DNA from: Clostridia bacterium
GTDB taxonomy: Bacteria; Bacillota; Clostridia; Christensenellales; UBA1242
Assembly: GCA_045638465.1 (NCBI GenBank)
Contig: JAZUBK010000020.1
Coordinates: 27,021 to 91,020 of the forward strand
Direction of reading: 5' to 3'
Length of the DNA stretch: 64,000 bases
Shown here: positions 28,398 to 63,976 of the stretch, in pieces
How the letters are laid out: every line of letters starts with the position of its first letter
Numbering within the stretch: the stretch's first letter is position 1
Made by a program: the position numbers and the translations under genes
The notes under the pieces: model-generated
Seen by the model: the letters and a program-made list of their open reading frames with translations, nothing else
Databases searched by the model: none
What the model was told of the DNA's origin: nothing

Positions 28398-31300
28398 ATG
28401 AAAAGAGTTTTAAAAATTTTTGGTATATGCTTAGGTGCAGTTATTATAGGTATGGGGCTACTAATTGGTGGTGCCTGGATTTTTGGTGCGTTTAACGAAA
28501 AGAAGATTCCACCAGAGGACCTATATTTTACTAAAGAAGAGGTTGTGACTTCATCTGCTGCAGCTTTGAGAGTTTCGACAAAGACAAAGGCAGCCAATCA
28601 GAAAAAGATTGATATTAACGTTTCTCCTAGTGGTGTCTTGGACGCTCCAAAAGTTGTTACTTTGGGCGAAGACTTTATCGTATGGCCTATAAAGGGCGAA
28701 GATGGTTATAACGTGGGCGGTATTGTTACTGTTACTGCAAGTTATAATGGTCTTTTGATAGCTAAATGTAGAGTAAAGGTAGACGTGCCTGTTGATGATA
28801 TTATTGTAAAAACTCAACACGCAAGTTTGTCAAAGGGTGAGCAAATAACATTCTCAACTGAGATTGTACCAGCTCGTGCCCTAAATCCTTGGAAAACAGA
28901 TATTATACCTGGTGACCTAAACTTATATGACGATAGAGAAAAGACAGTATTTTATTTCCTTTATGACAATTCTGGTTACCTTATGGATACAACAAAAGCA
29001 TATTTCTTTGATTCTAACAGAAAGACAAATATGCTAAAGAGTACAGATATTGACTCTCAAACAAGACTAGTTGCTATAGAAGAATGTGACTTCTTTGTAA
29101 AAGCTTTTTGCTTTTCTACCTTTGCTAGAGAAGACTACTATAACGTAGAAGATATCGCTGATATGAAATACGAAGACGGCCGTGAGCAAATCAAAGAAGA
29201 GTTTATCAATGTTTTGCAAGAGGCTCGTTCAGAAAGTGGTAATGATAGTGGACAATTTATTTCTGTAACAGACGTATATATCAATGACTTTACTGCTTCT
29301 AGCGAAATTATCAATACATTCCTTTATGAAACAACATATCTTACTGCAAGGACAGAATCTCCTGCAGCAAATGCTTTTAACCTAGATATGAAATTACACC
29401 CAGCAGAAACAAGCGGCGGTTATACTTATGAAGACCTTGATGGCTTTATTGATAATATCGTTCTAGAGTGGACTGATGGTGCAGAATTAAAAATTGCAAA
29501 ACAAGGACAATTTAGCGAAGGAACACCAGCTGATTGGAACTGGAGTATTTGTCCTACAGTTTATGATAACGAAAGCTTGACTGCAACACTAAAGGCTACA
29601 ATCAACTACTTCGATATCAAAACTAACGAAATGGCAACATTAGAAAGATTCTTTGATGTTCAAGTAAATACAAGACCAGTTGCTGGTATCGTAGCAGATA
29701 AGTTCAAAGATGAAACTGGCGAAAACAAAGAATATATCTCTCTAAACTCTGATAGCCCAGATACAGACTCTATCAAACTTGAAGAAGGTTTTGTTAGCGA
29801 AAAGACAGATTCTGGACTTTTGACTCATAGTTACAAATACTTTGACGTTGTACCACAGGTTGGATATGCGTACCCTACATTTAGTTTGGTTAAGTTCTTT
29901 CTGCCAGCAGACAGCGTTATAAGGCCTTATACAGAGGGTAACTACAAAATTTCATTTGAATTTGAAGAAACTTCTAGATCAACTGGTTATAGATTGAATA
30001 TCGCAGATGGTAATATCCAAGGTGATATTTCATTCTTCAAATTAAACGAAACAACAGGTGAGTACGAAGCTATTGCTGGTAGCCCATCTGCTGAAAACGG
30101 AAAATATAGAGCAGAGCTTATTTACAAAAAGACAAATAAAGCTGTTCCTGAGTTTGCTTTCTATGGCGATGGTGCAGAACCAATGGTTGTAAATAACGTT
30201 TTGTATTACGAACAAAATAGTGAATATCCTTTCTGCGAAGTAAACGGAGTAAAAGTAAAAACATTCTTTAACTCAGATAGCATGGTTATCACAAGACAAC
30301 TTGCTGAGATTACTGCAGAAGGTTATGGTAACTTCAACATTATTGCTTCTGTAGTTGTATCTGATAACAACGGATCTATCATTTATAACGAAGATGGCGG
30401 ATTTATTACACTTACAACAAAGACTGTTCAAGTAAGAGTAACAAATAGCGTAAAAGATATTAAACTAAACGTAAGCGCCGAAGACGGTACTACTACTGGT
30501 GTAGAACAAGGCGACTTTAACAGAACAGTAGTACTTGACGAAAACTCAGAGTATTATATCTATATCGCTCCAGGCGATAACACTGCTTTGGACGTTTTGA
30601 CTCAAGCAGTAGAAAAAGGATCTTTTGAAATAACTTATAGAGTTAGAACAGAAAGATTTGACGAAAACGAAGCTGTAATCAATGCTGATGCCTTGACTAT
30701 CAACGAAATAATCGAAGATAGAGATGGCGGTGGTAATTTGATTGGATACAAATTCTTGCTAGGAGTTAATAACGTATATTCTATAGAAAATTCTTCTGGC
30801 GAGACTATGAGTATTATATTCAATATTACATTTGCGGTAAAAGGTACAAGCTTTACTCAAACAAATAATATTGAAATTAGAGACCACGTTTTGAAAGAAG
30901 CAGAAATTGCTTATGGTGATTCTTCTGTTAACCAAATGCAAATTTATGCATCTAACGTAGAAGGTGGCGTTGTTCAATGGAAAGAAAGGAGCAACTCAGC
31001 GGCAGTTGACCTAACTAAGTTTAAATTTGAGTTCTCAAGCGAATATGGTACAGTTAACGTTGCTCCAAACATTACATTTGCTGCAACTAACCATAATGTA
31101 ATCGTTACAAATCTTATCGCTGCAACTCCAGACGAAAATGGCGTATTTATTCTTTCATTAAACAACTTCCCATACTATAATGATGGTGTAAATGTTGATA
31201 TTACTATGGAATACGGCGGCAGCGATGATACTATAAACAAGAGATATGTATATGATCAAGATGGTGATTATTATATATTGAGAAGTTATGAAGAAACAAC

Positions 31301-32627
31301 TGCAGTATTTACTCTTGTTATTTATGGATTCAACATTTCATACAGCCCAAGAGCAGTTGATATTGTTGGCGTAAAAGATCAAACTGTTGATATTACTGAT
31401 GCTTCATATGTAACTATCACTATAAAAGATGCTAAAAACTCTACAGTATCTAAACCTATTACTGACGTTGTTGACTTTAGTATGATGTCTACAGCTTACT
31501 TTAGACTAGATGGTACAGTAATTACTATTCTAAAGAGTATTACAACTCCTCAAAGTATTTCTGTTACTTTGATGATTGGTTCAAATACTTTTGGACAACA
31601 TAACCTAACATTTAAATCACCATATAGTATTACTCAAACAAAGACAACTCCTATTGCGGCACCTCAATCAAATGTTGCTTTGAGCACTTACTTTACTATT
31701 AAACAAGATTCAAACGCAGTAGATTCAAAACTTATTAAATTTGAACTAGGTGATAGTGTAATCGAACAAAATGGCAAAAACGTTTCTGAGTATGTAACAA
31801 TCGCAGCAGATGGTGTGCTAAACGTAAAATATGTTCCATACAACTTCAACATAGATGTTCATATTACCATTTACGAAAAGATAAATACAGACCTTGGCTA
31901 TGAACCTGAAAACCTAGAGAGCAAAGGTACATGGACTGACTTGCTTATCCCAGTTGTAAATGATTACTACGAAAACAACGAAGTATTTGTTGGAAACTCA
32001 GCTACTTTGGGTAATAAGATTTATGGCAACAAGCAAAATAACTTTATCCACATAGAGTCTATCTATGCAGGTAGCGATTATACAATGGAAATCGCCTTTG
32101 AAAACAACTTCTTGTATGAAGGTGCACAATTTGTATATGCTGGTAATAGAGATCAATACTATGGTTATCCTATTTATGCATCTGATATTGTTTCAGAAGA
32201 GCCAATTACAGTAACTGTAACATTGTACATCACAATCCCTGGAAATGGTGATACAATTGCACAATTTGATGTATATGTATATCAATATATGTATGTAGAG
32301 TTTGCAAGAAATGCTGTATTGCAAAGTGGAACATCAGGATTCTCAGTAAGTACTGATGATGACTATAGACTAACTGACTACAACGGTCAAACTGTAACAC
32401 TAGAAGAAGGTGGCGTAAGCTTGTTCTTTAGTGTAAGTGTAGATCCAGAAAGCGTAGACATAATCGAACTTAGAGAAGAAGACTTGGGTGGAACTACTGT
32501 TAATGCAAAACTTGGCATAGAAGAAGAGCAAACAGCATACTTAATAGTTACTCGTAAAATCTTTAACGGAACTGCGGAATACACAATCAATTATAGATTG
32601 GCGATAACTGTAAGACCTCAAGCATAA
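28398..32627 (+). CDS. Giant (1409 aa) N-terminally anchored surface protein, Ig-like/beta-rich, family unknown
   Basis: SD aggag. Signal-anchor KIFGICLGAVIIGMGLLIGGAWIFGAF. T/N/V/Y-rich ectodomain with a Big_2-like segment near the N-terminus. No LPXTG, choline-binding or S-layer motif seen. Confidence 0.6.
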   Translation: MKRVLKIFGICLGAVIIGMGLLIGGAWIFGAFNEKKIPPEDLYFTKEEVVTSSAAALRVSTKTKAANQKKIDINVSPSGVLDAPKVVTLGEDFIVWPIKGEDGYNVGGIVTVTASYNGLLIAKCRVKVDVPVDDIIVKTQHASLSKGEQITFSTEIVPARALNPWKTDIIPGDLNLYDDREKTVFYFLYDNSGYLMDTTKAYFFDSNRKTNMLKSTDIDSQTRLVAIEECDFFVKAFCFSTFAREDYYNVEDIADMKYEDGREQIKEEFINVLQEARSESGNDSGQFISVTDVYINDFTASSEIINTFLYETTYLTARTESPAANAFNLDMKLHPAETSGGYTYEDLDGFIDNIVLEWTDGAELKIAKQGQFSEGTPADWNWSICPTVYDNESLTATLKATINYFDIKTNEMATLERFFDVQVNTRPVAGIVADKFKDETGENKEYISLNSDSPDTDSIKLEEGFVSEKTDSGLLTHSYKYFDVVPQVGYAYPTFSLVKFFLPADSVIRPYTEGNYKISFEFEETSRSTGYRLNIADGNIQGDISFFKLNETTGEYEAIAGSPSAENGKYRAELIYKKTNKAVPEFAFYGDGAEPMVVNNVLYYEQNSEYPFCEVNGVKVKTFFNSDSMVITRQLAEITAEGYGNFNIIASVVVSDNNGSIIYNEDGGFITLTTKTVQVRVTNSVKDIKLNVSAEDGTTTGVEQGDFNRTVVLDENSEYYIYIAPGDNTALDVLTQAVEKGSFEITYRVRTERFDENEAVINADALTINEIIEDRDGGGNLIGYKFLLGVNNVYSIENSSGETMSIIFNITFAVKGTSFTQTNNIEIRDHVLKEAEIAYGDSSVNQMQIYASNVEGGVVQWKERSNSAAVDLTKFKFEFSSEYGTVNVAPNITFAATNHNVIVTNLIAATPDENGVFILSLNNFPYYNDGVNVDITMEYGGSDDTINKRYVYDQDGDYYILRSYEETTAVFTLVIYGFNISYSPRAVDIVGVKDQTVDITDASYVTITIKDAKNSTVSKPITDVVDFSMMSTAYFRLDGTVITILKSITTPQSISVTLMIGSNTFGQHNLTFKSPYSITQTKTTPIAAPQSNVALSTYFTIKQDSNAVDSKLIKFELGDSVIEQNGKNVSEYVTIAADGVLNVKYVPYNFNIDVHITIYEKINTDLGYEPENLESKGTWTDLLIPVVNDYYENNEVFVGNSATLGNKIYGNKQNNFIHIESIYAGSDYTMEIAFENNFLYEGAQFVYAGNRDQYYGYPIYASDIVSEEPITVTVTLYITIPGNGDTIAQFDVYVYQYMYVEFARNAVLQSGTSGFSVSTDDDYRLTDYNGQTVTLEEGGVSLFFSVSVDPESVDIIELREEDLGGTTVNAKLGIEEEQTAYLIVTRKIFNGTAEYTINYRLAITVRPQA

Positions 32628-42435: not shown

Positions 42436-42479
42436 CATAATGTTACTACTTGTTATATTTATAAGGGGGGTTGGACATT

Positions 42480-43086: not shown

Positions 43087-45195
43087 ATGGATATTAGACA
43101 AAATGTTTTAGATTGCTTAGAAACACACAACCTATTGCATAACAATTTGCACGAACTTGCAACTATGATTGCAAGTAAACTTTCTTTGGATACAAAAGAG
43201 GTTGTTAGCGCCCTAAAAGAGCTTGTTGCTCAAGGCGACGTTTTCGAATATGACAAAGGCAAATTTGCATCAATAATTTCTCTTGGAATGGTCAAAGGAA
43301 AACTAATGGGCCACACTAGAGGCTTTGGTTTCGTTTCTCGCGGCCCTAAGCAAGAAGACGTATTTATTCCTGCTAAGTTTATGAACGGCGCTATGAACAA
43401 TGATATCGTCCTTGTAGATGTGTTGCAAGACGCCGAAGATGATAAGAGTGAAGTTGGTAAGGTAGTTAAAATTTTGGAAAGAGGGACTGATCAAATTGTT
43501 GGTACATACCAAGCATGTAGAAAATTTGGTTGGGTTATTCCTGATGACCAAAAATTTAATAAAGATATTTTTATTCCTACAGGAAAAAGCAGAGGTGCAA
43601 AAGATGGTGATACTGTTGTAGTAACTATCACAAGTTATGGCGGAGCGAAAAAACCTGAAGGATATGTTAACGAAATTATCGGCGACAAAAACGCACCTGG
43701 TAATGATGTACTAAGTTTAATCAGACAATACAAAATTTACGAAGAGTTCCCAAAAGAAGTAATGGACTATGTTGCTACTGTTCCTCAAGAGGTAACAGAA
43801 AACTCTAAAAAGAATCGTAGAGATTTGACCGACCTTGTAACATTTACAATCGACGGCGAAGACGCAAAAGACTTTGACGATGCAGTGTCACTTACTATCG
43901 AAAATGGAATATATAACCTTGGTGTACATATTGCTGACGTAGGACACTATGTTCAAAAAGATGGTGTTTTGGATAAAGAGGCATACAAAAGAGGTACTAG
44001 CGTGTACTTTTGCGATAGAGTAATACCTATGCTTCCAAAAGAACTTTCTAACGGTATATGTTCACTAAACGAAGGCGTAGAAAGACTTTGTCTTTCTGTG
44101 TTTATGAAAATAGATGCAACAGGTAATGTAATTTCTCATGATATTTGCGAATCTGTAATCAAAAGCAAACATCGTATGACCTATACTTCAGTTTTCAAGA
44201 TGCTTGAGGGCGACGAAGAAGAAATAAGGAAATATTCAGATGTTGCTGATATTATCAAAGATATGGGTGAACTTTCAGAGCTACTTATGAAGGTAAGAAA
44301 TGAAAGAGGAAATATCGACTTTGATTTTCCAGAAACATATTTGGTTATAGATAGCAATGGTAAACTAGTTGACGTTAAAGCAAGGGAAACAAACAGAGCC
44401 CATAGACTTATCGAAACATTTATGGTGCTAACAAATGAAGTAATAGCTGAGCATATGTGCAAAGAAAAATTACCATTTGTTTATCGTGTCCACGAAACAC
44501 CAGATGCAGAAAAAATGACAACATTATTTGCTTTCCTTGATTCTTTTGGAATTCATTATGATTGCGACCTAAGAGATGTAAAACCAAAAGATATTCAAAA
44601 CATAATGAATCAAATTGAAGACAAAGATTATAAAGACGTTATTAGTACAGTTATGTTAAGATCACTTAAAAAAGCAAGATATTTGCCAGAATGTCTTGGT
44701 CACTTTGGTCTTGCTAGTACGTTCTATTGTCACTTTACATCACCTATCAGAAGATACCCAGACCTTATTATCCACAGAATTATCAAACAATATTTGCATG
44801 GTTCTCTAAATAATATTGTTAAAAACGAACTAAAATCTTATGTTGAGACAGCATCTCTTCAATCAAGCGAAAGAGAAAAACTAGCTGAAGAGATGGAAAG
44901 AGCAGTAGACGACCTAAAGAAAGCTCAATATATGACTGACTTTATCGGTGATAGATTCCCAGGCGTTATCTCTGGACTTAACCAAAGAGGTATCTTTGTT
45001 ATGCTAGAAAATACAGCAGAGGGCATAATTAATATTGACTTTTTGCCAAATGACAGCTATGATTATGACGATACTACATTGACACTTAGTGGCAAAAATA
45101 ACCACTTTAGACTAGGTGATAAGGTAGAAATCGAAGTTTCTGGCACAAATATAAGAGAAAGAAAAATCTATTTCAAATTTGTTAAAAAATTATAA
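43087..45195 (+). CDS. rnr: Ribonuclease R
   Basis: 702 aa. RNB motifs IDGEDAKDFDDAV and HFGLASTFYCHFTSPIRRYPDLIIHR. C-terminal S1-like domain. Lies upstream of smpB-ssrA. Confidence 0.92.
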   Translation: MDIRQNVLDCLETHNLLHNNLHELATMIASKLSLDTKEVVSALKELVAQGDVFEYDKGKFASIISLGMVKGKLMGHTRGFGFVSRGPKQEDVFIPAKFMNGAMNNDIVLVDVLQDAEDDKSEVGKVVKILERGTDQIVGTYQACRKFGWVIPDDQKFNKDIFIPTGKSRGAKDGDTVVVTITSYGGAKKPEGYVNEIIGDKNAPGNDVLSLIRQYKIYEEFPKEVMDYVATVPQEVTENSKKNRRDLTDLVTFTIDGEDAKDFDDAVSLTIENGIYNLGVHIADVGHYVQKDGVLDKEAYKRGTSVYFCDRVIPMLPKELSNGICSLNEGVERLCLSVFMKIDATGNVISHDICESVIKSKHRMTYTSVFKMLEGDEEEIRKYSDVADIIKDMGELSELLMKVRNERGNIDFDFPETYLVIDSNGKLVDVKARETNRAHRLIETFMVLTNEVIAEHMCKEKLPFVYRVHETPDAEKMTTLFAFLDSFGIHYDCDLRDVKPKDIQNIMNQIEDKDYKDVISTVMLRSLKKARYLPECLGHFGLASTFYCHFTSPIRRYPDLIIHRIIKQYLHGSLNNIVKNELKSYVETASLQSSEREKLAEEMERAVDDLKKAQYMTDFIGDRFPGVISGLNQRGIFVMLENTAEGIINIDFLPNDSYDYDDTTLTLSGKNNHFRLGDKVEIEVSGTNIRERKIYFKFVKKL

Positions 45196-45665: not shown

Positions 45666-46016
45666 GGGGGCGACTTGGTTTTGACGGGGAGGTTGAAACC
45701 TTTGTGTAAAGCATATCGCAGGTGTGGACTGCGTCATCAACCGCAAAATGCAATAAATGCAAACAATAACACTTGCCTAGCTGCAGCGTAATGTAGCTTG
45801 TTCTAAGGGCCTTTTCTCGCGGGGACTTTAGAACATTAGTTTAGCGAGAGGCAAACTATTGTTGGTCTTTGGCTGTAGTTTGTTATCTACAAAGACTAGC
45901 TGGTGAACTTCTGTCTATGGAATCGTCACTGGGGAGGAATCAATCATAGAATAAGTATGTAGAAAAGCAATCGTTTACCTTTTCGGACGAGAGTTCAATT
46001 CTCTCCGCCTCCACCA
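45666..46016 (+). ncRNA. ssrA: tmRNA (SsrA), ~351 nt
   Basis: The 5' gggggcg pairs with the 3' cgcctcc, giving the G3-U Ala identity pair, followed by ACCA. T-arm gagagttcaattctctc. Internal tag ORF ends LAAA-TAA. Directly follows smpB. Confidence 0.92.
45759..45791 (+). other. tmRNA tag-coding segment: ANNNTCLAAA-stop
   Basis: GCA resume codon at tmRNA position 94. Reading frame is gca aac aat aac act tgc cta gct gca gcg taa. Confidence 0.6.
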
Positions 46017-46118: not shown

Positions 46119-47786
46119 ATGTCAGAAAAGAAATATGTTATTGATAATAAAAAACTAATGGCTGAATGGGATGTAGAAAAAAATCAAAAACTTGGCTTTT
46201 ATCCAGACAAAATAACTTGTGGTTCAAATAAAAAAGCATGGTGGAAGTGTTCCAAAGAACACGAGTGGCAAGCAGCAATATGCAGTAGAAATATGGGGTC
46301 AGGATGTCCATATTGTTCAGGAAATAAGGTTTTAAATGGTTATAACGATTTAAAGACAGTTAATCCAATTTTAGCAAATGAATGGAATTATAAAAAAAAT
46401 GGAAACTTAACCCCTGAACTTTTTACAGCAAGTAGCAAACAAAAGGTTTGGTGGAAATGTTCAAAAGAACACGAATGGCAAGCTTCAATAAATAGTAGAA
46501 GTAATGGTAGAGGTTGTCCATACTGCTCAAACAAAAAAGTTTTGAAAGGTGTTAATGATTTGCAGACATTAAATCCTGATTTGGCAAGTGAATGGAATTA
46601 TGAAAAAAATGGACAATTAAGCCCGACAGAGGTCTTGCAAAATAGTCATAAAAAAATATGGTGGAGATGTAATAATGGGCACTGTTGGGAAGCAATAATT
46701 GCTGATAGGAATAAAGGAAATGGATGTCCATATTGTTCTGGAAGATACTCCATAAAAGGCAGAAATGACCTATTAACAGTTAATCCAATATTGGCAAACG
46801 AATGGAATTATGAGAAAAACAACGAATTAACACCTAAAGATGTGTTGCCTAATAGCGACAAAAAAGTATGGTGGAGATGTAAAAAAGGTCATGAATGGCT
46901 AGCCTCTATAGGTCATAGAAGTAATGGACGTGGATGTCCTATTTGTGATTCTGAAAGAAAAACCTCTATGCCTGAATATGCAATTGTGTATTATCTAAAA
47001 AAACATGGAATAGAAGTTGTTCATTCCTATAAAGAATTAGGATACGAATTAGACGTTTTTCTTCCAACAAAGAAAATTGCTATCGAGTATGATGGAAGTT
47101 ATTGGCACAAAAATAGAAGAAAAAAAGATTTGGAAAAAAACCAAAAATGTAAAACAGATGGTATTAAATTATATAGAATAAGAGATGGTTTACCTTCATT
47201 AAACGATAGTTCTATAGATTATATTATTGAAGAAAAACAAAAAGATTTTTGTCAAGTGCTTGAAAAAATTTTAAGTGAAATCATAGGTAAAAAAATCAAT
47301 ATTAATTTAGAAAAAGATTCCATAGAAATAGAAAACTTACGAGATTATACAGAAAAGAACAATTCTCTTTTAATGTCCAACCCAGAAGTTGCTAAAGAAT
47401 GGAATTATGCAAAGAATGGTAGTTTAACACCTCAACAATTTTTTGCCCATAGCAATAAAAAGGTATGGTGGAAATGTAAAAATGGTCATGAATGGCAAGC
47501 AAATATAAACGATAGAAATAGAGGTCGAGGTTGTCCATTTTGCGCAAGCAAAAAGATCCTTCAAGGATATAATGATTTAGCCACAATAAATCCATCATTG
47601 GCAAACGAATGGAATTACGAAAAAAATGATGGGCTAAAACCTATAGATGTATTACCTAATAGTCATAAACAAGTGTGGTGGAAGTGCAAAAATGGTCATG
47701 AGTGGCAAGCTGTGATAAAAAGTAGAAATAATGGAAATGGATGTCCATATTGTTATAGATTAAATAAACATAAAAAAGACACTTAG
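46119..47786 (+). CDS. Zinc-ribbon repeat protein (6 DUF4379-like modules) with embedded PD-(D/E)XK / DUF559-like nuclease core
   Basis: 555 aa. Six ~70-aa modules of the form WNYEKNG.L.P..V...S.KKVWWKC..GHEW.A.I..R..G.GCPYC (four N-terminal, two C-terminal). The central segment YELDVFLPTKKIAIEYDGSYWH resembles Vsr/DUF559-type endonuclease cores. Confidence 0.6.
   Translation: MSEKKYVIDNKKLMAEWDVEKNQKLGFYPDKITCGSNKKAWWKCSKEHEWQAAICSRNMGSGCPYCSGNKVLNGYNDLKTVNPILANEWNYKKNGNLTPELFTASSKQKVWWKCSKEHEWQASINSRSNGRGCPYCSNKKVLKGVNDLQTLNPDLASEWNYEKNGQLSPTEVLQNSHKKIWWRCNNGHCWEAIIADRNKGNGCPYCSGRYSIKGRNDLLTVNPILANEWNYEKNNELTPKDVLPNSDKKVWWRCKKGHEWLASIGHRSNGRGCPICDSERKTSMPEYAIVYYLKKHGIEVVHSYKELGYELDVFLPTKKIAIEYDGSYWHKNRRKKDLEKNQKCKTDGIKLYRIRDGLPSLNDSSIDYIIEEKQKDFCQVLEKILSEIIGKKININLEKDSIEIENLRDYTEKNNSLLMSNPEVAKEWNYAKNGSLTPQQFFAHSNKKVWWKCKNGHEWQANINDRNRGRGCPFCASKKILQGYNDLATINPSLANEWNYEKNDGLKPIDVLPNSHKQVWWKCKNGHEWQAVIKSRNNGNGCPYCYRLNKHKKDT
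46164..47770 (+). repeat. Diverged intragenic ~210-nt repeats (6 copies, interrupted by a ~430-nt unique core)
   Basis: gaatggaatta anchors at 46380, 46590, 46800, 47397 and 47607 (spacing exactly 210, 210 and 210 within blocks). A related gaatggg lies at 46164. Confidence 0.85.
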
Positions 47787-48534: not shown

Positions 48535-50925
48535 ATGGGAAGAAAGGATCAAGTAGTTAATGTTGATAAGTACCTAGAAGAGGCTTATACAACACTTGTG
48601 GTCAATGACTTTTATGGGGTAAGCGGCGATACTGCTGCCGTTGTACAACATTTGGCATCAGATATGGGGCTTTCGACCAAAAGAGTTGCGCACGTTGTCG
48701 CAAAACTTATCGAAGATAAGTATTTAATTTATTCAAAGAAAGAAGGTGGCTTACTTGATGGTAGGCACATTCTAAAAGGTGTTTTTCACCCTTATAAAGA
48801 GGGCAAAGGCTTTGTGACTGTCGAGGGTATGCCTCGAGACCTTAAAGTAAAAGGCACAAAGTATGCTAGAGAAGGCGATATCGTTGAGGTTGTATATTTT
48901 GGCGAAGAGATGCCAGAAAACCTTGGCGTAAGCAGAGTTGTAAAAAGAGTTAACGACCATGTTGTTGGTGTCGTTGCAAAAAATGAAGAGGGCCATTTTG
49001 TACTAAGACCACTTCACGAACCTTATTCAAGAGAATTTTTACTTCCACCAAGCGAATCTACTGCAAACTTTGAGGGTCAAATTTGTAGTATGAAAATAAC
49101 TGTATTTGAATCAAGCAAAGGTTGTGGTGCAGGTACCATCGAAAAAAGCTTTGGTTTTGCAGAAGATCCTATTGCACAAAATGGTGCAATTGCATATAAA
49201 TATGGCTTTGTAAAAGACTTCCCAGAAGATGTAATGGCAGAGGTTGCAAGAATCCCTGATCACGTTACACCAGAAGAAATGCAAGGCAGATTAGACCTAA
49301 GACATCTTCCTATCGTATCTTGCGACCCAAAAAGTTGCAAAGACAAAGACGATGCTTATTATATAGAAAGAACTGCAGCAGGATATAGAGCTTATGTTGC
49401 AATAGCAGACGTTAGCCACTATGTAAGACCTGGCAGCGCCATAGACAAAGAGGCTTTGCACCGTGGAACTAGCTGCTACATTGGTGATGGCGTTTATCCT
49501 ATGCTACCTCCTGCACTATCTAACGGCATATGTTCACTTCATGCAGGGGTAGACAGACTTGCAGTTGTGTCAATAATCGATTTTGATAACAATGGCAATA
49601 TCATAAACACCGACGTACAAAGAGCCGTTGTTAATATCAAACATTCAATTTCATACGAAGAGCAAGAGGCTATCTATCTTGCACAAGATGGTATGGATAA
49701 AAAGTTTGCGGATATCAAACCTGTTGTAGATCTTTTGTACGAAGGTCATAGAGTGCTAGATAGAAATGTAAAATCAAAAGGCAAGATAGAGTTTGAAACT
49801 GACGAACCAAAATATATATTTGATTCTACAAAGACAAAAGTAATCGACGTTGTAGGCCAAGGTCAAGAAGAATCACATGCAGTAGTAGAGTCATTTATGA
49901 TTCTAAACAACGTAGCTATTGCAACTAGAGCTACTCAAAGAGGCCTAAATGTTGCAAGAAGAAATCACCAACCACCAACAGAGGACAAAATAAACTTCTT
50001 TAATCGTGACCTTAAAGCCTTTGGAATTAACTATACAGTAAAAGATTATTCAAAGAGTTTTCAAACTTTGATGGATAGAGCTGATGTAAAATCTAGCAAA
50101 TATTACCCAATTATCGTAAGCAAAGGTCTAAGATCAATGCAAAAAGCAAATTATGGCGTAGAAAGAGAGGGTCACTTTGCTTTAGGACTTCCTGAGTATT
50201 TGCACTGGACATCACCTATCAGAAGATATGTAGACCTTGTAAACCACAGAATTATATTCAATGATCTAGAGCAAAATTCAGAGTGGATATCAAGAGGCAG
50301 ACTAGAGACTTTGACTCAACATTTGTCAGAAAGAGATAGAGCTGCAGAAAGTGCAGAGAATGAGGCTAATAAAGGCCTAAATGCAAACTATGCTGAAGGT
50401 CAAATCGGCAGAGTATTTGATGGCTATGTAAAAGATATCGGCGGCAAAGAAATAACTGTTGGAATTAAAAATAACCTAGTTAACCTAACTGTTCCTGTCG
50501 CAGAATTACAAGGCGGATATAATGCACATTATAAAGCATCAGATAATCATATGCACATAGTAGATGTTAGAACAGGTCACAAATATAGCCTAGGCGATAC
50601 TGTGCCTGTAATGATCGCCAGTGTCGACAGATCAAGAGATGTGATAGTTGCAACAACTGATCTTCACAAAAAACTAGAAAGACCAGCTCAAAGACGCCCA
50701 GAAGTAAAACTTCCAAGTGCAGCAGATCTTCCTAGATTTGAAGATGTAGTAAGAAAACTCCCAGAGACTTTGGGTGAGGAATATACAGCTCAAGTATCAA
50801 GCTTACTTGCTCCTCACGAATACGCAGAACCAAAGCAAGAACCAACAGCTACAAAACCAGAGCAAATTATCGATTCAACCCCAGATTCAACTGCTAAGAC
50901 TCAAGATAGTGGCAAAGCACAATAA
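48535..50925 (+). CDS. Second RNase II/R-family 3'-5' exoribonuclease (RNB domain), divergent paralogue
   Basis: 796 aa. Contains CDPKSCKDKDDAYY (D-x5-D-x-D-D catalytic pattern) and HFALGLPEYLHWTSPIRRYVDLVNHR. Has an N-terminal winged-helix-like segment and a Pro/Glu/Thr-rich tail. Confidence 0.85.
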   Translation: MGRKDQVVNVDKYLEEAYTTLVVNDFYGVSGDTAAVVQHLASDMGLSTKRVAHVVAKLIEDKYLIYSKKEGGLLDGRHILKGVFHPYKEGKGFVTVEGMPRDLKVKGTKYAREGDIVEVVYFGEEMPENLGVSRVVKRVNDHVVGVVAKNEEGHFVLRPLHEPYSREFLLPPSESTANFEGQICSMKITVFESSKGCGAGTIEKSFGFAEDPIAQNGAIAYKYGFVKDFPEDVMAEVARIPDHVTPEEMQGRLDLRHLPIVSCDPKSCKDKDDAYYIERTAAGYRAYVAIADVSHYVRPGSAIDKEALHRGTSCYIGDGVYPMLPPALSNGICSLHAGVDRLAVVSIIDFDNNGNIINTDVQRAVVNIKHSISYEEQEAIYLAQDGMDKKFADIKPVVDLLYEGHRVLDRNVKSKGKIEFETDEPKYIFDSTKTKVIDVVGQGQEESHAVVESFMILNNVAIATRATQRGLNVARRNHQPPTEDKINFFNRDLKAFGINYTVKDYSKSFQTLMDRADVKSSKYYPIIVSKGLRSMQKANYGVEREGHFALGLPEYLHWTSPIRRYVDLVNHRIIFNDLEQNSEWISRGRLETLTQHLSERDRAAESAENEANKGLNANYAEGQIGRVFDGYVKDIGGKEITVGIKNNLVNLTVPVAELQGGYNAHYKASDNHMHIVDVRTGHKYSLGDTVPVMIASVDRSRDVIVATTDLHKKLERPAQRRPEVKLPSAADLPRFEDVVRKLPETLGEEYTAQVSSLLAPHEYAEPKQEPTATKPEQIIDSTPDSTAKTQDSGKAQ

Positions 50926-55711: not shown

Positions 55712-57520
55712 ATGACATTTTTAGACGTATTTTTGAAAGTTCTTGCAATTTTGGGTATTATTGCTGTTGGTACCTTTATTATTGTATTTTTATCTGATTT
55801 ACTTATTTCTATCATTGATAATTCAAATGGTATTTTCTTTAGAAGAAACAAAGGTTCTTCAAATCGTGGTGGTAGCTACGGAAGACCTAAGATGATTACT
55901 CAACAAAGACCTGACGAGTATGAAAAGTTAACATATAACGAGCCAAAACCAGAGCCTAGACCAGAAACTAGACCTGAAGTAAGACAAGCTCCACAACCTG
56001 TAAGACAAGCACCTGTAAGTCCTGCAGCATCTGAGGGTATTGATTACGAAAAAGCTCGTGAAGAAGAACGCCTTGCAGCAAGGGCTTCTATTTCTCCATC
56101 ATCTATTAACAAACAAAAAGCCGAAGAAGACGAAAAGACAGCTGAAAGACTAAGACTAATCGAAGCTAGAAGAAGAGAATTTGAGGCTGCACAAAAAGCT
56201 GCTGAGCAAGAAGCAGAAGACGATGATGAAGATGCAATCGACGAAGAAGAAATAAAGAGAATTATTGCTGGAGCAACAGCACAAGAAACAGCAAAGAAAG
56301 AAGAAGAGAAAATAAACAAAGAGGCTCTTCAATCTGAAATTGAAGAAAAACTAAGAAAAGAATACGAAGCAAAACAAGCAGAAATGACAGCTCAACAAGC
56401 TGAGATCGAAGCAAAACTAAGAGAAGAGCAAGAAGCTAGACTTGCAGAAATCGAAGCAGAAAAAGCAGAGCAAGAAGAAAGAATCGCTATCATGGAAGCT
56501 TACAAAGCGCAACAAGAAGAAAGATTACTAGCTCTAGAAGCAGAAAACGCAGAAAAAGAAACAAAATATGCAGAAGAAGCTCTTAAAATCAAAGACGAAC
56601 AAGAAGCTAAAGAAGCAGAAAAAGAAAGACTAGAAAAAGAAATCGAAATTCTAAAAAGACAACTAGAAGAGGCAAACTCTACAGTTGTTACTCTAACTCA
56701 ACAAGTTAACGAAAAACCAGAACCAGAAGTTCAAGTTGTATACGAAAAAGTTATTACTGGCAAAGGCATGACAAAAGAAGAAATCGAAACAAAACTTGCA
56801 CTTTTGAAACAAAGACTAAAAGCAAACGAAAAAGAACTTTCTGCAAACAAAAAAGATTATTTGCCTCTAAAGAGAGTAAATATGACTTTGGCAAACGACG
56901 AAAAGAAACTAAGAAGAAAAGAAGCTATGGTTGCCAAAAAGAAAGTTATGCTTTATGGCGTAAACAACTATGTTGATATCGACGAAGAAAAAGCAAAAGA
57001 ACTAGCAGAAGAACTAGACCTACTAGAAGGACTAAAACTAAGCGTACAACATTGTCGTGAAGTTATGGAAGCAAACAAAGATAGATACCCAATTCTTGAG
57101 AAAACAAATACTATCTTGACAAACAACATCGAAGGTCTAAAGGCAGATATCGCAGAACTAGAAGCTAGACTTGCTGAGTTCCCTGCAGACGATAGCGATA
57201 ACGAAGACGGTGGCAAAAAAGAAGTTGCTGAAGATAAAAAACCAGCAGTTAAAAAGCCAGAACCTAAAAAAGAAGTAAAGAAAGAAGCTCCTAAAAAAGA
57301 AGAACCAGCTAAAGAAGTGAAAGCTCCAAAAGTTGAAGAGAAAAAAGCAGAAGAAAAACCTGAAGTTAAACAAGAAGTTAAAAAGGAAGAACCTGCAAAA
57401 AAAGCTGAGCCAAAGAAAGACATAAAAAATGATGGAGATATCGACGTAAGCGGCGGCATGGCTGACGATGACGTAGAGGCTTTGGTTAATGCAATACTAG
57501 GAACTACTGATAAAAAGTAA
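55712..57520 (+). CDS. Hypothetical N-terminally anchored coiled-coil protein with Pro-rich linker and K/E/P-rich C-terminal region
   Basis: 602 aa, SD aggggg. TM helix VLAILGIIAVGTFIIVFLSDLLISII. PEPRPETRPEVRQAPQPVRQAP linker. Long E/A/K/Q heptad-like region. The tail is KKPEPKKEVKKEAPKKEEPAKE... Confidence 0.6.
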   Translation: MTFLDVFLKVLAILGIIAVGTFIIVFLSDLLISIIDNSNGIFFRRNKGSSNRGGSYGRPKMITQQRPDEYEKLTYNEPKPEPRPETRPEVRQAPQPVRQAPVSPAASEGIDYEKAREEERLAARASISPSSINKQKAEEDEKTAERLRLIEARRREFEAAQKAAEQEAEDDDEDAIDEEEIKRIIAGATAQETAKKEEEKINKEALQSEIEEKLRKEYEAKQAEMTAQQAEIEAKLREEQEARLAEIEAEKAEQEERIAIMEAYKAQQEERLLALEAENAEKETKYAEEALKIKDEQEAKEAEKERLEKEIEILKRQLEEANSTVVTLTQQVNEKPEPEVQVVYEKVITGKGMTKEEIETKLALLKQRLKANEKELSANKKDYLPLKRVNMTLANDEKKLRRKEAMVAKKKVMLYGVNNYVDIDEEKAKELAEELDLLEGLKLSVQHCREVMEANKDRYPILEKTNTILTNNIEGLKADIAELEARLAEFPADDSDNEDGGKKEVAEDKKPAVKKPEPKKEVKKEAPKKEEPAKEVKAPKVEEKKAEEKPEVKQEVKKEEPAKKAEPKKDIKNDGDIDVSGGMADDDVEALVNAILGTTDKK

Positions 57521-60290: not shown

Positions 60291-62273
60291 ATGAAGATAG
60301 ATGATAAAGTAGTAAATTACCTTAGAGTTACAGGTTGTAACATGATAACAAATGCGGGTTCTGGGCACCCAGGTATTGTCTTGTCTGGAGCGCCAATTTT
60401 GTATTCTATTTACAAAAACGCCTCTATCAATAGTAGCGATAGCCACTATTTTAATAGAGATAGAATCGTAGTATCAGCAGGTCATGGCTCTGCGCTATAC
60501 TATGCTACACTACAACTATTTGGATATAATATTTCTATCGACGACCTAAAGGCTTTTAGAAAGTCAGGTTCTAACACACCTGGTCACCCAGAAGTTTATA
60601 TCACAGATGGAGTAGACTGCTCTACAGGTCCTCTAGGTCAAGGTATTGCTAACGCAGTTGGTTTTGCTATAGCAGAGACATATATGGCTGCAAGATATAA
60701 CCAAGCCGACAACAACCTTATCGACCACTATACATATGCCTTTTGTGGTGACGGCTGTTTGATGGAAGGTGTTGCAAATGAGGCAATCTCTCTTGCTGGA
60801 CATTTAAAACTAAACAAACTTATTGTTTTGTACGATTGCAATAAAGTTACTATCGAAGGTGGCCTAAATATGGTCAATAGCGAAAATGTAAAGTCAAAAT
60901 TTACTGCTCAGGGCTGGAACGTACTTGAGGTAAAAAATGGCAATTCTATTGATGAAATTGAAGTTGCAATCAACCTTGCTAAACAATCAAGAAACAAACC
61001 AAGTTTGATTATTGTAAATACAACTATTGGTTATGGTAGCGACTATGCAGGTAACGCAAAGTGCCACGGCAGTCCGCTAAAACAAGAAGAAATAACAAAC
61101 CTAAAAGTAAACCTAGAATATTTAGAAAGCGACTGGAAGATTCCTACCGATATCAAAAAGCATATCGCAAAAATCAATGACGCTAAACTAAAAAATTACA
61201 AAACTTATCAAAAACTTCTAAACAAATACAAAGTAAAATACTATAGCGATTACGAAGAACTAAGAGATTGCGTAGACGGTATAGAATATGATGTGTTGCC
61301 AATCATAAACGATCACAAACATAAGTTTAGCGATAACCAAAGCACACGTGATATCAATGGCATCGTACTAAACGCAGTAGCAAAAGCTGTTCCTGCTATT
61401 ATCGGCGGAAACGCAGACCTTGGCCCATCTACTAAGGCAGTTTTGAAAGAAGAAGAAACATACACCCCAACAAATAGAGCAGGAAAGAACCTTTGCTTTG
61501 GTATCAGAGAACATGCTATGGGCGCTATCTGCAATGGTATTTCACTTCACGGTGGCTTGATGCCATATTGTGGTACTTTCTTTGCTTTCGAAAACTATAT
61601 GACACCTGCTATTCGTATGTCAGCACTTATGCCAACACCAGTTATTTATACATTTACTCACGATAGCGTAGCCGTTGGCGAAGACGGACCTACTCATCAA
61701 CCAGTAGAACAAATAGCAACACTTAGAGCTATGCCAAATCTTAGAGTGTTTAGACCAGCAAACTACGAGGAAAACTTTGTTGCTTATGACTGCGCACTAA
61801 ATACTAGATACCCAACTGCAATTATACTTTCTCGTCAAAACTTCAGAAGAGTTGCGGGAGATGCAAAAGAAGCTCAAAAGGGCGGTTATATCGTAAAACC
61901 TGCTAAAAATACAAAAGCAACTATTATCGCAACAGGTAGCGAAGTAAGTTTAGCTGTAGAAATAGCAGAAAAACTAGACAAAAGAGGTGTGCCAACAGCA
62001 GTAGTATCTATGCCTTGCGTAGAGTTGTTTGAAGAGCAAAGTGCTCAACATAAAAACAAAACTCTTGGCAAAAACACTCAAGTATATGCAATAGAGGCTA
62101 GTAGCGACAATGTTTGGTATAAGTTCGTAACCGAAAAAGATAATGTATTTAACATTACAGAGTTCGGCAGAAGCTGTGAACCAGAAGAACTTATGAGAGA
62201 ACTAGGCCTTAGCGAAACTAAGATTATGAACAAAATTCTAAAAGACTTCAAAAAGCCAATCATTAAAGAATAA
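60291..62273 (+). CDS. tkt: Transketolase
   Basis: 660 aa, GSGHPG, GDGCLMEGV, THDSVAVGEDGPTHQPVEQ. Confidence 0.95.
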   Translation: MKIDDKVVNYLRVTGCNMITNAGSGHPGIVLSGAPILYSIYKNASINSSDSHYFNRDRIVVSAGHGSALYYATLQLFGYNISIDDLKAFRKSGSNTPGHPEVYITDGVDCSTGPLGQGIANAVGFAIAETYMAARYNQADNNLIDHYTYAFCGDGCLMEGVANEAISLAGHLKLNKLIVLYDCNKVTIEGGLNMVNSENVKSKFTAQGWNVLEVKNGNSIDEIEVAINLAKQSRNKPSLIIVNTTIGYGSDYAGNAKCHGSPLKQEEITNLKVNLEYLESDWKIPTDIKKHIAKINDAKLKNYKTYQKLLNKYKVKYYSDYEELRDCVDGIEYDVLPIINDHKHKFSDNQSTRDINGIVLNAVAKAVPAIIGGNADLGPSTKAVLKEEETYTPTNRAGKNLCFGIREHAMGAICNGISLHGGLMPYCGTFFAFENYMTPAIRMSALMPTPVIYTFTHDSVAVGEDGPTHQPVEQIATLRAMPNLRVFRPANYEENFVAYDCALNTRYPTAIILSRQNFRRVAGDAKEAQKGGYIVKPAKNTKATIIATGSEVSLAVEIAEKLDKRGVPTAVVSMPCVELFEEQSAQHKNKTLGKNTQVYAIEASSDNVWYKFVTEKDNVFNITEFGRSCEPEELMRELGLSETKIMNKILKDFKKPIIKE

Positions 62274-62279
62274 AAAATA

Positions 62280-62309
62280 AAAAGCAGTTTGATTAAACTG
62301 CTTTTTTTT
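62280..62309 (+). terminator. Intrinsic terminator
   Basis: Arms aaaagcagttt and aaactgctttt, followed by a T-run. Confidence 0.8.
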
Positions 62310-62555: not shown

Positions 62556-62584
62556 TTGACAAACGGGGGGGGGGGTGTTACACT
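62556..62584 (+). promoter_or_regulatory. Promoter TTGACA-17-(TGt)TACACT whose spacer is mostly an 11-G homopolymer
   Basis: TTGACA at 62556-62561. Spacer is aac + G11 + tgt, exactly 17 nt. TACACT at 62579-62584 with an extended -10 TG. AGGAGG at 62597-62602. Confidence 0.55.
62565..62575. repeat. G11 homopolymeric tract
   Basis: Counted directly (6 + 5 G across the line break). It is the longest G/C run I saw in the window. Confidence 0.95.
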
Positions 62585-62615
62585 TAAATGAGTTAAAGGA
62601 GGATTGAAAAAAATA

Positions 62616-63929
62616 ATGAAAAAAGTTCTTACACAAGAAGAAAAAGCTGAGAAAAAGTTTATAAAAAGATACACTTTGTGTAGATTTAATAAACTAGTAA
62701 CAATTATTTTGATTGCAGCTTTTATCGGGTGCACACTTTGTTTCGGTTTAGGCTTGAGAGGCCTTAATACTGGAACAACCACAACACATGATGGGTCTTT
62801 GGGTATCGGTATGACTATACTACTTGCTATTGGTGGTATTGGTTGGGCGGTTATTCCGTTCTTTATATTCAGGAGATGTTCACTAGCTTTTACTTTGATG
62901 GGCGTTGGTTTTTGGGACGTAGGTGTTGCGTTGCCAGGTATGGCTCTTCAAGGCGAAAACTGGGCTTTGGGCGGAGCACTAGTATTCTTTGGGGTGATTG
63001 GTCTACTTCTTGCCGAAAGACGTAGAAACAAAAAGGTTGCTAACTACAAATTGAGAGCAAACGAAGATTTTATCGAAAATGTATTTTTGAGTGCAGATGC
63101 TGATAGATTAACAGGGGCTTTAGATTATGCATCTGGCGTAGAAACAGCTTATAAAGGAAGCTTGTATTTTGCACTTTCTTTTATGCTTGTAGCGATGACA
63201 GGTATAGGTTTGGTACTTCCTTTTGGTAAATGGGCTTATAGCTATAACAAATATCTTTTCTTTGTATCTAGCGATTGGGACCCTGCTACAGAAGAAATTG
63301 TAAACACTAAATTCAAGGGCAAAAAGTTTAAACAAAATAAACCTTATACATATCTTTTAGATGGCTTGATTTTTGTTAACGAAAAACCTTTCTATGCTGC
63401 AAAAACAAATGAAAAATGTAATTATCCTTTGAGAGCATGGGCAAGTTATACATTTAGCGCTGTTTATTTGTTTATTTTCTCAATGATTAGCGAAATCAAC
63501 ATGAAAAAAGCTTCTTTTGTTAGCAAAATGGACACAACTTTGGGTGAATTTGTATTCTCTGCAAAGTATATGGCAGAAAAAGATGAAGAGTGTGCGCAAC
63601 TATTTGTAGATTATGCAAAATCTCAATCTGCAGAAAATAGACAAGAACTTCTTGAAGGTCTTGGAAACTGGATTCAATCAGCTCAAGACGAAAATAGAGC
63701 AGAGCTTGAAAGAATCAATAGATACGAACAAGAAAGAGATAGATTTAACAAAGTCGGCGCAACTCAAGCAAATGTATATGTAGATGATGAGGGCTTGTAT
63801 GCAGAGGGTTATGATGCAGAAGGCGCTAAAAAACAATACAAACTTGATGAGTATGATGAAGCAACTGGTGTTGGCTCATATACCGACGAAAGCGGCAAAA
63901 AAGTCAAAATCAAAAACACAAAAGAATAA
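62616..63929 (+). CDS. Hypothetical polytopic membrane protein with soluble charged C-terminal region
   Basis: ATG 62616. The track's TTG at 62604 abuts the SD and is implausible. About 6 hydrophobic helices. C-terminal region of about 130 aa is helical and acidic. No family recognised. Confidence 0.5.
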   Translation: MKKVLTQEEKAEKKFIKRYTLCRFNKLVTIILIAAFIGCTLCFGLGLRGLNTGTTTTHDGSLGIGMTILLAIGGIGWAVIPFFIFRRCSLAFTLMGVGFWDVGVALPGMALQGENWALGGALVFFGVIGLLLAERRRNKKVANYKLRANEDFIENVFLSADADRLTGALDYASGVETAYKGSLYFALSFMLVAMTGIGLVLPFGKWAYSYNKYLFFVSSDWDPATEEIVNTKFKGKKFKQNKPYTYLLDGLIFVNEKPFYAAKTNEKCNYPLRAWASYTFSAVYLFIFSMISEINMKKASFVSKMDTTLGEFVFSAKYMAEKDEECAQLFVDYAKSQSAENRQELLEGLGNWIQSAQDENRAELERINRYEQERDRFNKVGATQANVYVDDEGLYAEGYDAEGAKKQYKLDEYDEATGVGSYTDESGKKVKIKNTKE

Positions 63930-63945
63930 TATAAAAAACAACAAA

Positions 63946-63976
63946 AAAAGAACTAACGATTTGTTAGTTCTTTTTT
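63946..63976 (+). terminator. Intrinsic terminator
   Basis: Arms aaaagaactaac and gttagttctttt, followed by a T-run. Confidence 0.8.

Follow-up and report, generated by a model that had tools for sequence, protein, structure and literature searches.

The predicted promoter of a membrane protein gene and its G tract

The locus analysed here raises the question of why an uninterrupted run of 11 G's (G11) lies between the -35 and -10 elements of a predicted promoter, and whether its length could set the expression of the gene that follows. The run is located near the end of a 64,000-nucleotide stretch of contig JAZUBK010000020.1 from a Clostridia bacterium (the window, meaning that whole stretch), ahead of a gene for a polytopic membrane protein. 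An earlier note, made from the letters alone, had listed a TTGACA hexamer, a spacer containing the G11, an extended -10 element, an AGGAGG Shine-Dalgarno sequence and the ATG of an open reading frame (ORF); all of these coordinates were reproduced in the sequence (Table 1). On the evidence below, we consider it likely that G11 is a hypermutable repeat in the spacer of a sigma-A-type promoter, serving as a slipped-strand switch of a rare membrane protein gene.

The window has a GC content of 34.45%, and G11 is its sole G/C run longer than 6, the next longest being one G6 and one C5. With independent bases, about 9e-4 runs of at least 11 G's are expected per window. This census and expectation bear out the claim of the earlier note that the run is unlikely by chance and has no comparable G/C run in the window. 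Besides the G tract and a (GACA)n repeat of a sister clade described below, neither a G/C run of at least 8 nt nor a repeat of at least 16 nt was found in the window and the fetched loci of relatives (designated L, and their proteins P). The G run was found again, identically placed, in more than 15 independent contigs of several species, which originate from JGI, ENA, NCBI and Logan assemblies. A poly-G artefact of two-colour chemistry could be ruled out, as the run is internal, has unique sequence on both sides and recurs in these contigs from four sources.

A promoter scan ranked the site first on the + strand (10/12 matches, spacer of 17, TG present). The preceding ORF (60291-62273) encodes a transketolase, with a counterpart in L014 that has transketolase Pfam domains, and ends in an intrinsic terminator, therefore the membrane protein gene is insulated from read-through. 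Since terminators bracket the unit on both sides, the gene is monocistronic and reliant on its own promoter. In the relatives L001 and L014, a convergent PFOR gene is found downstream of the locus.

Conservation of the tract among relatives

Relatives of the protein are rare, with about 10 in a collection of 5.8 billion proteins and a family of 15 representatives (E<=1e-3) among 1.84 billion cluster representatives; the most distant clade (P0010) is found at 32% identity. The only name attached to them is 'MAG: Clostridia bacterium'. One relative (L005) sits between spoIIA/sigF and spoVA genes, therefore the host lineage is apparently spore-forming. Upstream regions were compared for every fetchable relative, and the promoter layouts were verified by script.

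In orthologues at 49-55% protein identity, an unbroken G9-G11 run is retained directly after TTGAC (Table 1). Based on the multiple alignment, only three alignable blocks precede the ribosome-binding site: TTGAC, the run of G's and the conserved T-A---T pattern of the -10 element. A pure homopolymer is mutationally fragile, and since this one survives uninterrupted at ~50% protein identity, the tract itself appears to be under selection. Four lineages have a spacer of exactly 17 nt, in three builds: 3+11+3 twice with different flanking bases, and 0+9+8. The AAC+G11+TGT build is common to the window and the L018 strain. Because 17 nt is reached in four lineages by three mixtures of G and non-G bases, the distance between the -35 and -10 elements seems to be part of the selected quantity. 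The genomic neighbourhood of the gene is different in every lineage, and therefore the gene carries its promoter and tract along with it. In all lineages, the G's are on the coding strand.

Taken by lineage, a putatively hypermutable repeat precedes the gene in six of the eight with a legible upstream region: a G9-11 spacer in five species-level lineages and (GACA)n in the sister clade. The upstream region of a further lineage, L013, has neither repeat, and that of L004 is unreadable. The comparison with related genomes that the earlier note had suggested thus gives a tract conserved across distant orthologues. In the metagenome contig collection, protein patterns and an exact 35-mer at the gene start gave no matches and no further tract alleles, and the genome contig collection held one partial locus without its upstream region. 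Zero relatives were present in the viral contig collection, therefore the gene is apparently not phage-borne. An exact look-up of the window protein with either start codon returned no record, yet P0017 proved identical to it. The N-termini of the more distant representatives contained no poly-Gly read-through pointing to further tracts.

The clade of P0006 and P0008 has no G run. Upstream of its orthologue lies a (GACA)n repeat of which the number of units differs between L009 and L010 (Table 1); these two loci and L011 encode an identical protein. The repeat stops ~125 nt short of the ATG and belongs to an apparent leader rather than to a promoter spacer. At the same position, the sister lineage L013 has only GATAGACAGG, with no expansion. 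The P0006 lineage (L009) and L013 share this leader of ~250 nt (L009 ~1800-2068; L013 ~3760-4000), which begins at a promoter-like ATGCTATACT, with a TGcTATACT element ~250 nt upstream of the ATG. Its middle is conserved (GACAGG..CTATGCCCTA..CTTTTT..CAAAAT.CAAC.GA.AGAACACTA) and it ends in a strong hairpin and T6 directly before the ribosome-binding site. Judged from these elements, the leader looks like an attenuator or riboswitch; an Rfam search of the orthologue loci gave no match to it at E<=1, and retrieved tRNAs only. Two different polymorphic repeats before orthologous genes form the pattern expected of contingency genes.

Length differences between near-identical contigs

All tract lengths come from short-read metagenome assemblies, and the variation reported here is that between assembled contigs. 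Six contigs from six samples (L018, L019, L020 and L001-3) are free of substitutions across 2,774 or 1,434 aligned columns. The differences among them are confined to the tract, with G11 in four, G9 in one and the loss of a bordering T in one. Across the six, five A/T runs of 7-8 nt within this stretch are invariant. The T loss is located in L020 (1487-1498), where the T between the G run and GTTATGCT is missing, giving G12 followed by TTATGCT, a 16-nt spacer and a TG extension without its T; this could reflect a true allele of low expression or an error of assembly. P0019, of the same protein cluster and strain and known from a seventh contig as a protein only, has an N-terminal extension '...SVDKRGGGVMLKS' (read-through DKRGGGVM), which is possible only from G10. 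For P0018, which stems from a noisy contig end, the G count is ambiguous (11-13). In a sister strain with a divergence of ~3.7% from the window, four contigs, two of them from ENA assemblies and two from Logan, have G10. Therefore, assembly of the tract can be reproducible.

Mononucleotide tracts of about 8-9 nt or more are long enough to slip, a length reached by the G11 of the window and the G9-G11 of the orthologues. As in switches of the porA and opc type, tract length is polymorphic in close strains with constant flanks. According to the sequence layout, the tract lies between the predicted -35 and -10 elements in six lineages, two of which have a 20-nt spacer. The length differences among contigs are single-base indels at the tract and not inversions, and the locus does not resemble an inverton, although no inverted-repeat search was made. 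Invariance across strains, which the earlier note had named as evidence against a switch, was not seen: lengths of 9, 10 and 11 and the T-loss variant occur in otherwise identical contigs of up to 2.8 kb.

The repeats also coincide with contig ends. The JGI contigs L001-3 all start at the same base, the T of TTGACA, 9 nt ahead of the tract, the ENA contig L004 starts inside the G tract and L011 starts inside (GACA)n. In all, ends at or within a repeat were seen in five contigs from different samples. Such breaks are expected from length heterogeneity or from poly-G coverage collapse and are suggestive only. At contigs ending in the repeat, false N-terminal extensions lead to proteins of 457, 461 and 468 amino acids instead of 437. 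The practical consequence is that metagenome assemblies break at the tract and that gene callers add false N-terminal extensions through it.

Proposed mode of action and alternative explanations

The G run is probably a mutational dial for the gene, since it is retained in related species and yet varies in length among strains that are otherwise identical. Slipped-strand mispairing at replication would add or remove G's, and each step would shift both the distance and the angular phasing between TTGACA and the weak TACACT, which is helped by the TG. G11, with 17 nt, would be optimal and is predicted to be the high state; expression would be intermediate with G10 (16 nt) and low with G9 (15 nt) or with G12 or more. 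A clonal population would then always hold cells with differing amounts of the protein. For this to hold, the hexamers would have to be the working promoter with expression following tract length, switching would have to be frequent and reversible, and the protein would be exposed and under fluctuating selection, e.g., by phage or host.

The window promoter should depend on spacing because its -10 element is weak (4/6) and its -35 element is consensus. The output is more likely graded, as in porA of Neisseria meningitidis (17 > 16 > 15 nt), rather than strictly ON/OFF, since all G-tract promoters except that of L005 have a TGn extension and three have a perfect TATAAT (L007, L008 and L012). 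The proposal of a slipped-strand switch in the earlier note is therefore retained and strengthened by cross-genome conservation and length polymorphism, while its strict ON/OFF framing is softened to a graded one, given porA and the TGn extension.

Several points weigh against a switch by spacing. L005 and L012 were assembled with a 20-nt spacer, three steps off the optimum, and no alternative -35 element was found for either; their populations may be resting OFF, or the tract may act partly by other means. A TGn extended -10 element can lessen the dependence on -35 spacing, and the dynamic range may be modest. Consensus length calls at G11 can be wrong in short-read assemblies, and contig breaks can stem from poor read quality after poly-G and not from true heterogeneity.

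The first two of these points also fit an unlikely but serious alternative, according to which the tract is mutable and selected, but the TGn extended -10 element drives transcription alone. The G length would then tune the position of an upstream activator or of an UP-like A-rich element, DNA stiffness or a G-tract-binding regulator, i.e., a rheostat of the Bordetella fim or Helicobacter pylori sabA type. Besides the 20-nt spacers, the perfect TGnTATAAT of three lineages and the A-rich block (AAAAT) ahead of the -35 element in most lineages agree with this explanation, and the location of (GACA)n in an apparent leader implies that hexamer spacing is not necessarily the way in which repeats of this gene family work. 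However, TTGAC is invariant directly ahead of the tract in all six lineages, the weak TACACT of the window should need its -35 element, and a total of 17 nt made up from different G/non-G mixtures is hard to explain unless spacing is selected.

Another possibility, which we regard as rather improbable, is that the G run has a fixed length, functional or neutral, that the promoter is effectively constitutive and that the length differences are short-read homopolymer or assembly errors. Poly-G is a known trouble spot of the short-read assemblies from which every length was taken, several contigs end at the tract and the contig end of P0018 is noisy. However, G10 in 4/4 contigs of one strain shows that the calls can be reproducible, a two-base difference of G9 versus G11 in otherwise identical sequence exceeds the typical consensus error, and the five A/T runs nearby never vary. 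The pure tract kept at ~50% identity and the second polymorphic repeat type in the sister clade also point to selection for mutability.

Finally, it is very improbable that the tract acts after initiation, in an RNA leader from a farther-upstream promoter (e.g., through an RNA G-quadruplex or C-rich pairing), or by frameshift in an extended coding sequence: ORFs of 449-468 amino acids reading through the tract were called in some contigs (P0001, P0018 and P0019) and a GCCCC motif lies ~30 nt upstream in the window, but this motif is not conserved in the other lineages, the transketolase (tkt) terminator lies upstream, and Rfam, run on the whole window and the intergenic region, retrieved only the transfer-messenger RNA (tmRNA) and sub-threshold matches to the tkt terminator hairpin. 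A frameshift-type contingency locus with the tract inside the coding sequence was ruled out, as the frame from the TTG of TTGACA stops at TGA 62589-91. The same applies to an N-terminally extended coding sequence, as every orthologue aligns from the downstream ATG (62616 in the window) with its own Shine-Dalgarno sequence. Promoters of the sigma-F/G/E type, considered given the spoIIA/spoVA neighbours in L005, were dismissed by eye, their consensus elements being unfit.

The membrane protein and its alleles

No family above threshold was assigned to the window protein by Pfam, NCBIfam, PHROGs or PADLOC. Hydropathy and charge suggest a K/R-rich N-terminus on the cytoplasmic side, four clear transmembrane helices at residues ~28-135 and a fifth at ~181-205, possibly followed by a sixth at ~271-292 (5-6 in total). 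A coiled coil (339-379) and then a C-terminal beta domain are also suggested. The AlphaFold model has a mean predicted local distance difference test (pLDDT) score of 72.9 and a predicted template modelling (pTM) score of 0.65. Foldseek gave no fold match in the PDB at E<=1e-3, its local match being 33 residues of 2rd1 (E=0.79). The last ~30 residues resemble the small beta domain of YgdI/YgdR (DUF903) and Tudor/SH3-like folds. Membership of the DUF903 family was rejected and only a resemblance is reported, as the C-terminal domain scores under the curated cut-offs (PF06004/NF033216: 18.9 bits versus a cut-off of 27; 14.8-16.3 bits versus 42).

Among strains, variability is highest in the first predicted outer loop (residues 50-64), where one clade has an insertion of ~40 residues. 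Two alleles are mosaics. In P0020, the first ~120 residues are of the window type (88-98% identity) and the rest are of the P0002 type (95-100%), with the switch at ~120-125. In P0012, identity to the window type is down to ~80% across residues 321-400, of which ~343-372 match the P0002 type. Divergence of the gene also outpaces that of the adjacent PFOR gene, with a nucleotide identity of 93.8% versus 98.2% within the species complex and an identity of 73% versus 86% to the sister species. As far as sequence comparison goes, the variable outer loop, the mosaic alleles and the faster divergence fit, but do not prove, an exposed protein under diversifying selection. The surface-exposed, phage-receptor or host-interaction role proposed in the earlier note would be in line with such a protein.

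Features of the locus and of the surrounding window

The coordinates of the locus are collected in Table 1, together with the promoter layouts of the relatives and the repeats of the sister clade. Between the Shine-Dalgarno sequence and the ATG, an A run (62607-62613) has seven A's in the window and eight in the sister strains L014-17 and L018-20. The corresponding Shine-Dalgarno-to-ATG distance is 13 nt in the window versus 14 nt in the sister strains, a difference fixed between strains and invariant within them. In L001, L004, L005 and L018-20, GGGGG is the Shine-Dalgarno sequence of the studied gene. The only other G run of at least 6 in the window (GGGGGG, 42465-42470) precedes an ATG by 9 nt and is probably used as a G-rich ribosome-binding site.

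Table 1. Locus features in the window, promoter layouts of the G-tract lineages (protein identity is that to the window protein) and repeats of the sister clade
Feature	Location	Strand	Protein identity	Spacer (nt)	Basis or remark
Intrinsic terminator of the upstream transketolase gene	window 62279..62306	+			12-bp stem, then T run
-35 hexamer TTGACA (consensus)	window 62556..62561	+			sequence and promoter scan; TTGAC invariant across 6/6 G-tract lineages
Promoter spacer, AAC + G11 + TGT	window 62562..62578	+		17	sequence, promoter scan and script check
G11 homopolymer, candidate slipped-strand (hypermutable) tract	window 62565..62575	+			run census; cross-species conservation; length variable between identical strains
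Extended -10 TGtTACACT	window 62576..62584	+			TG 62576-77; TACACT 62579-84, 4/6 matches to TATAAT
Shine-Dalgarno AGGAGG	window 62597..62602	+			13 nt ahead of ATG; purine-rich block equivalently placed in all orthologues
Coding sequence, 437 amino acids, polytopic membrane protein, function unassigned	window 62616..63929	+			ORF; start ATG shared by all orthologues
Bidirectional intrinsic terminator closing the unit	window 63944..63976	both			14-15-bp stem, T runs on each strand
Layout TTGACA-AAC-G11-TGT-TACACT	window			17	
Layout TTGACA-AAC-G11-TGT-TATGCT	L018, L001-3		94%	17	
Layout TTGACC-TTC-G11-TGG-TATAAT	L007		50%	17	
Layout TTGACT-G9-TAGAATGC-TATAAT	L008		49%	17	0+9+8
Layout TTGACG-A-G11-TATAGAGG-TATACT	L005		55%	20	
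Layout TTGACT-TGTGC-G10-TGTGG-TATAAT	L012		49%	20	
(GACA)14	L009 1888-1943				upstream of orthologue; encodes P0006
(GACA)18	L010 1555-1626				upstream of orthologue; encodes P0006
(GACA)n, n at least 7	L011 1-28 (contig end)				upstream of orthologue; encodes P0006

The window is otherwise a housekeeping region, encoding an AddA-like helicase-nuclease, two RNB-domain proteins of the RNase II/R family (43087-45195 and 48535-50925), iPGM and transketolase. The ORFs 28398-32627, 5127-7085 and 55712-57520 (1409, 652 and 602 amino acids, respectively) have no Pfam match at E<=1e-5. A tmRNA gene (45666-46016, 156 bits) is followed at 46119-47786 by a gene for a 555-amino-acid protein in which six DUF4379 treble-clef zinc-finger repeats and a weak match to REase_MTES_1575 were detected. 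Given that mobile elements often integrate at tmRNA genes, this gene could belong to a mobile element or serve in defence. On the + strand, 33 of the 34 ORFs of at least 200 amino acids are found, a bias typical of the leading-strand organisation of Firmicutes.

Comparison with known systems

Promoter repeats that switch surface components are known from several bacteria, such as the poly-C tract of N. meningitidis opc, the poly-A tract of Mycoplasma hyorhinis vlp, the TA repeats of Haemophilus influenzae hifA/B, the poly-G tracts of Treponema pallidum tpr and the poly-C tract of Bordetella fim. As is proposed for the present locus, the repeat lies in or near the promoter and slipped-strand length changes alter transcription, while these systems differ from it in repeat type and in position relative to activator sites. 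To our knowledge, none of these examples comes from the class Clostridia. The poly-G/C loci of Campylobacter jejuni and H. pylori resemble the tract studied here in their AT-rich genomes, G tracts of 9-11 nt, conserved position and polymorphic length. They are, however, mostly intragenic frameshift switches, present in tens per genome with mismatch repair defective or absent, whereas one promoter tract was found here in 64 kb.

The closest precedent is N. meningitidis porA, which has an uninterrupted poly-G tract in the spacer with the same lengths of 9-11. In porA, 11G, 10G and 9G between the -35 and -10 elements lead to high, intermediate and low expression, respectively, and antibody selection enriches shorter tracts (PMC3639595). 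Its product is also a membrane protein and is under immune selection, but it is an outer-membrane porin of a Gram-negative pathogen, whereas the present product is a polytopic protein of the cytoplasmic membrane in uncultured, apparently spore-forming Clostridia of the Gram-positive type. The effect on expression is proven for porA, while for the Clostridia locus we infer it.

Within the same bacterial class, phase variation of Clostridioides difficile cwpV, flgB, cmrRST and pdcB/pdcC proceeds in all cases by site-specific inversion of a promoter or leader (2025 review, PMC11868660). These systems would have in common with the present locus a stochastic heterogeneity of envelope or signalling genes; they rely on inversion, whereas here the difference lies in repeat length, through indels at the tract. 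So far, descriptions of phase variation in gut Firmicutes have mostly concerned invertible promoters, and no poly-G promoter switch of the class Clostridia was found in the literature searched, which was a limited library.

Judged by its layout, the locus would be mechanistically akin to the promoter-spacer repeat switches of porA, opc and vlp, a known kind rarely reported in this group. A wider claim is put forward tentatively and seems somewhat doubtful to us: that this whole small membrane-protein family of uncultured, apparently spore-forming gut Clostridia is a dedicated contingency gene, and the first repeat-driven (non-inversion) phase-variable locus of a surface or phage-receptor-like kind in the class Clostridia, kept over genus- or family-level divergence. 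If true, uncultured commensal Clostridia also use slipped-strand contingency loci, and an anonymous membrane-protein family is marked as something that bacteria need to vary, making it a lead for phage-receptor or host-interaction studies. What goes beyond the usual case is the deep conservation of the tract, across genus- or family-level divergence, together with the tetranucleotide repeat that takes its place in a sister clade.

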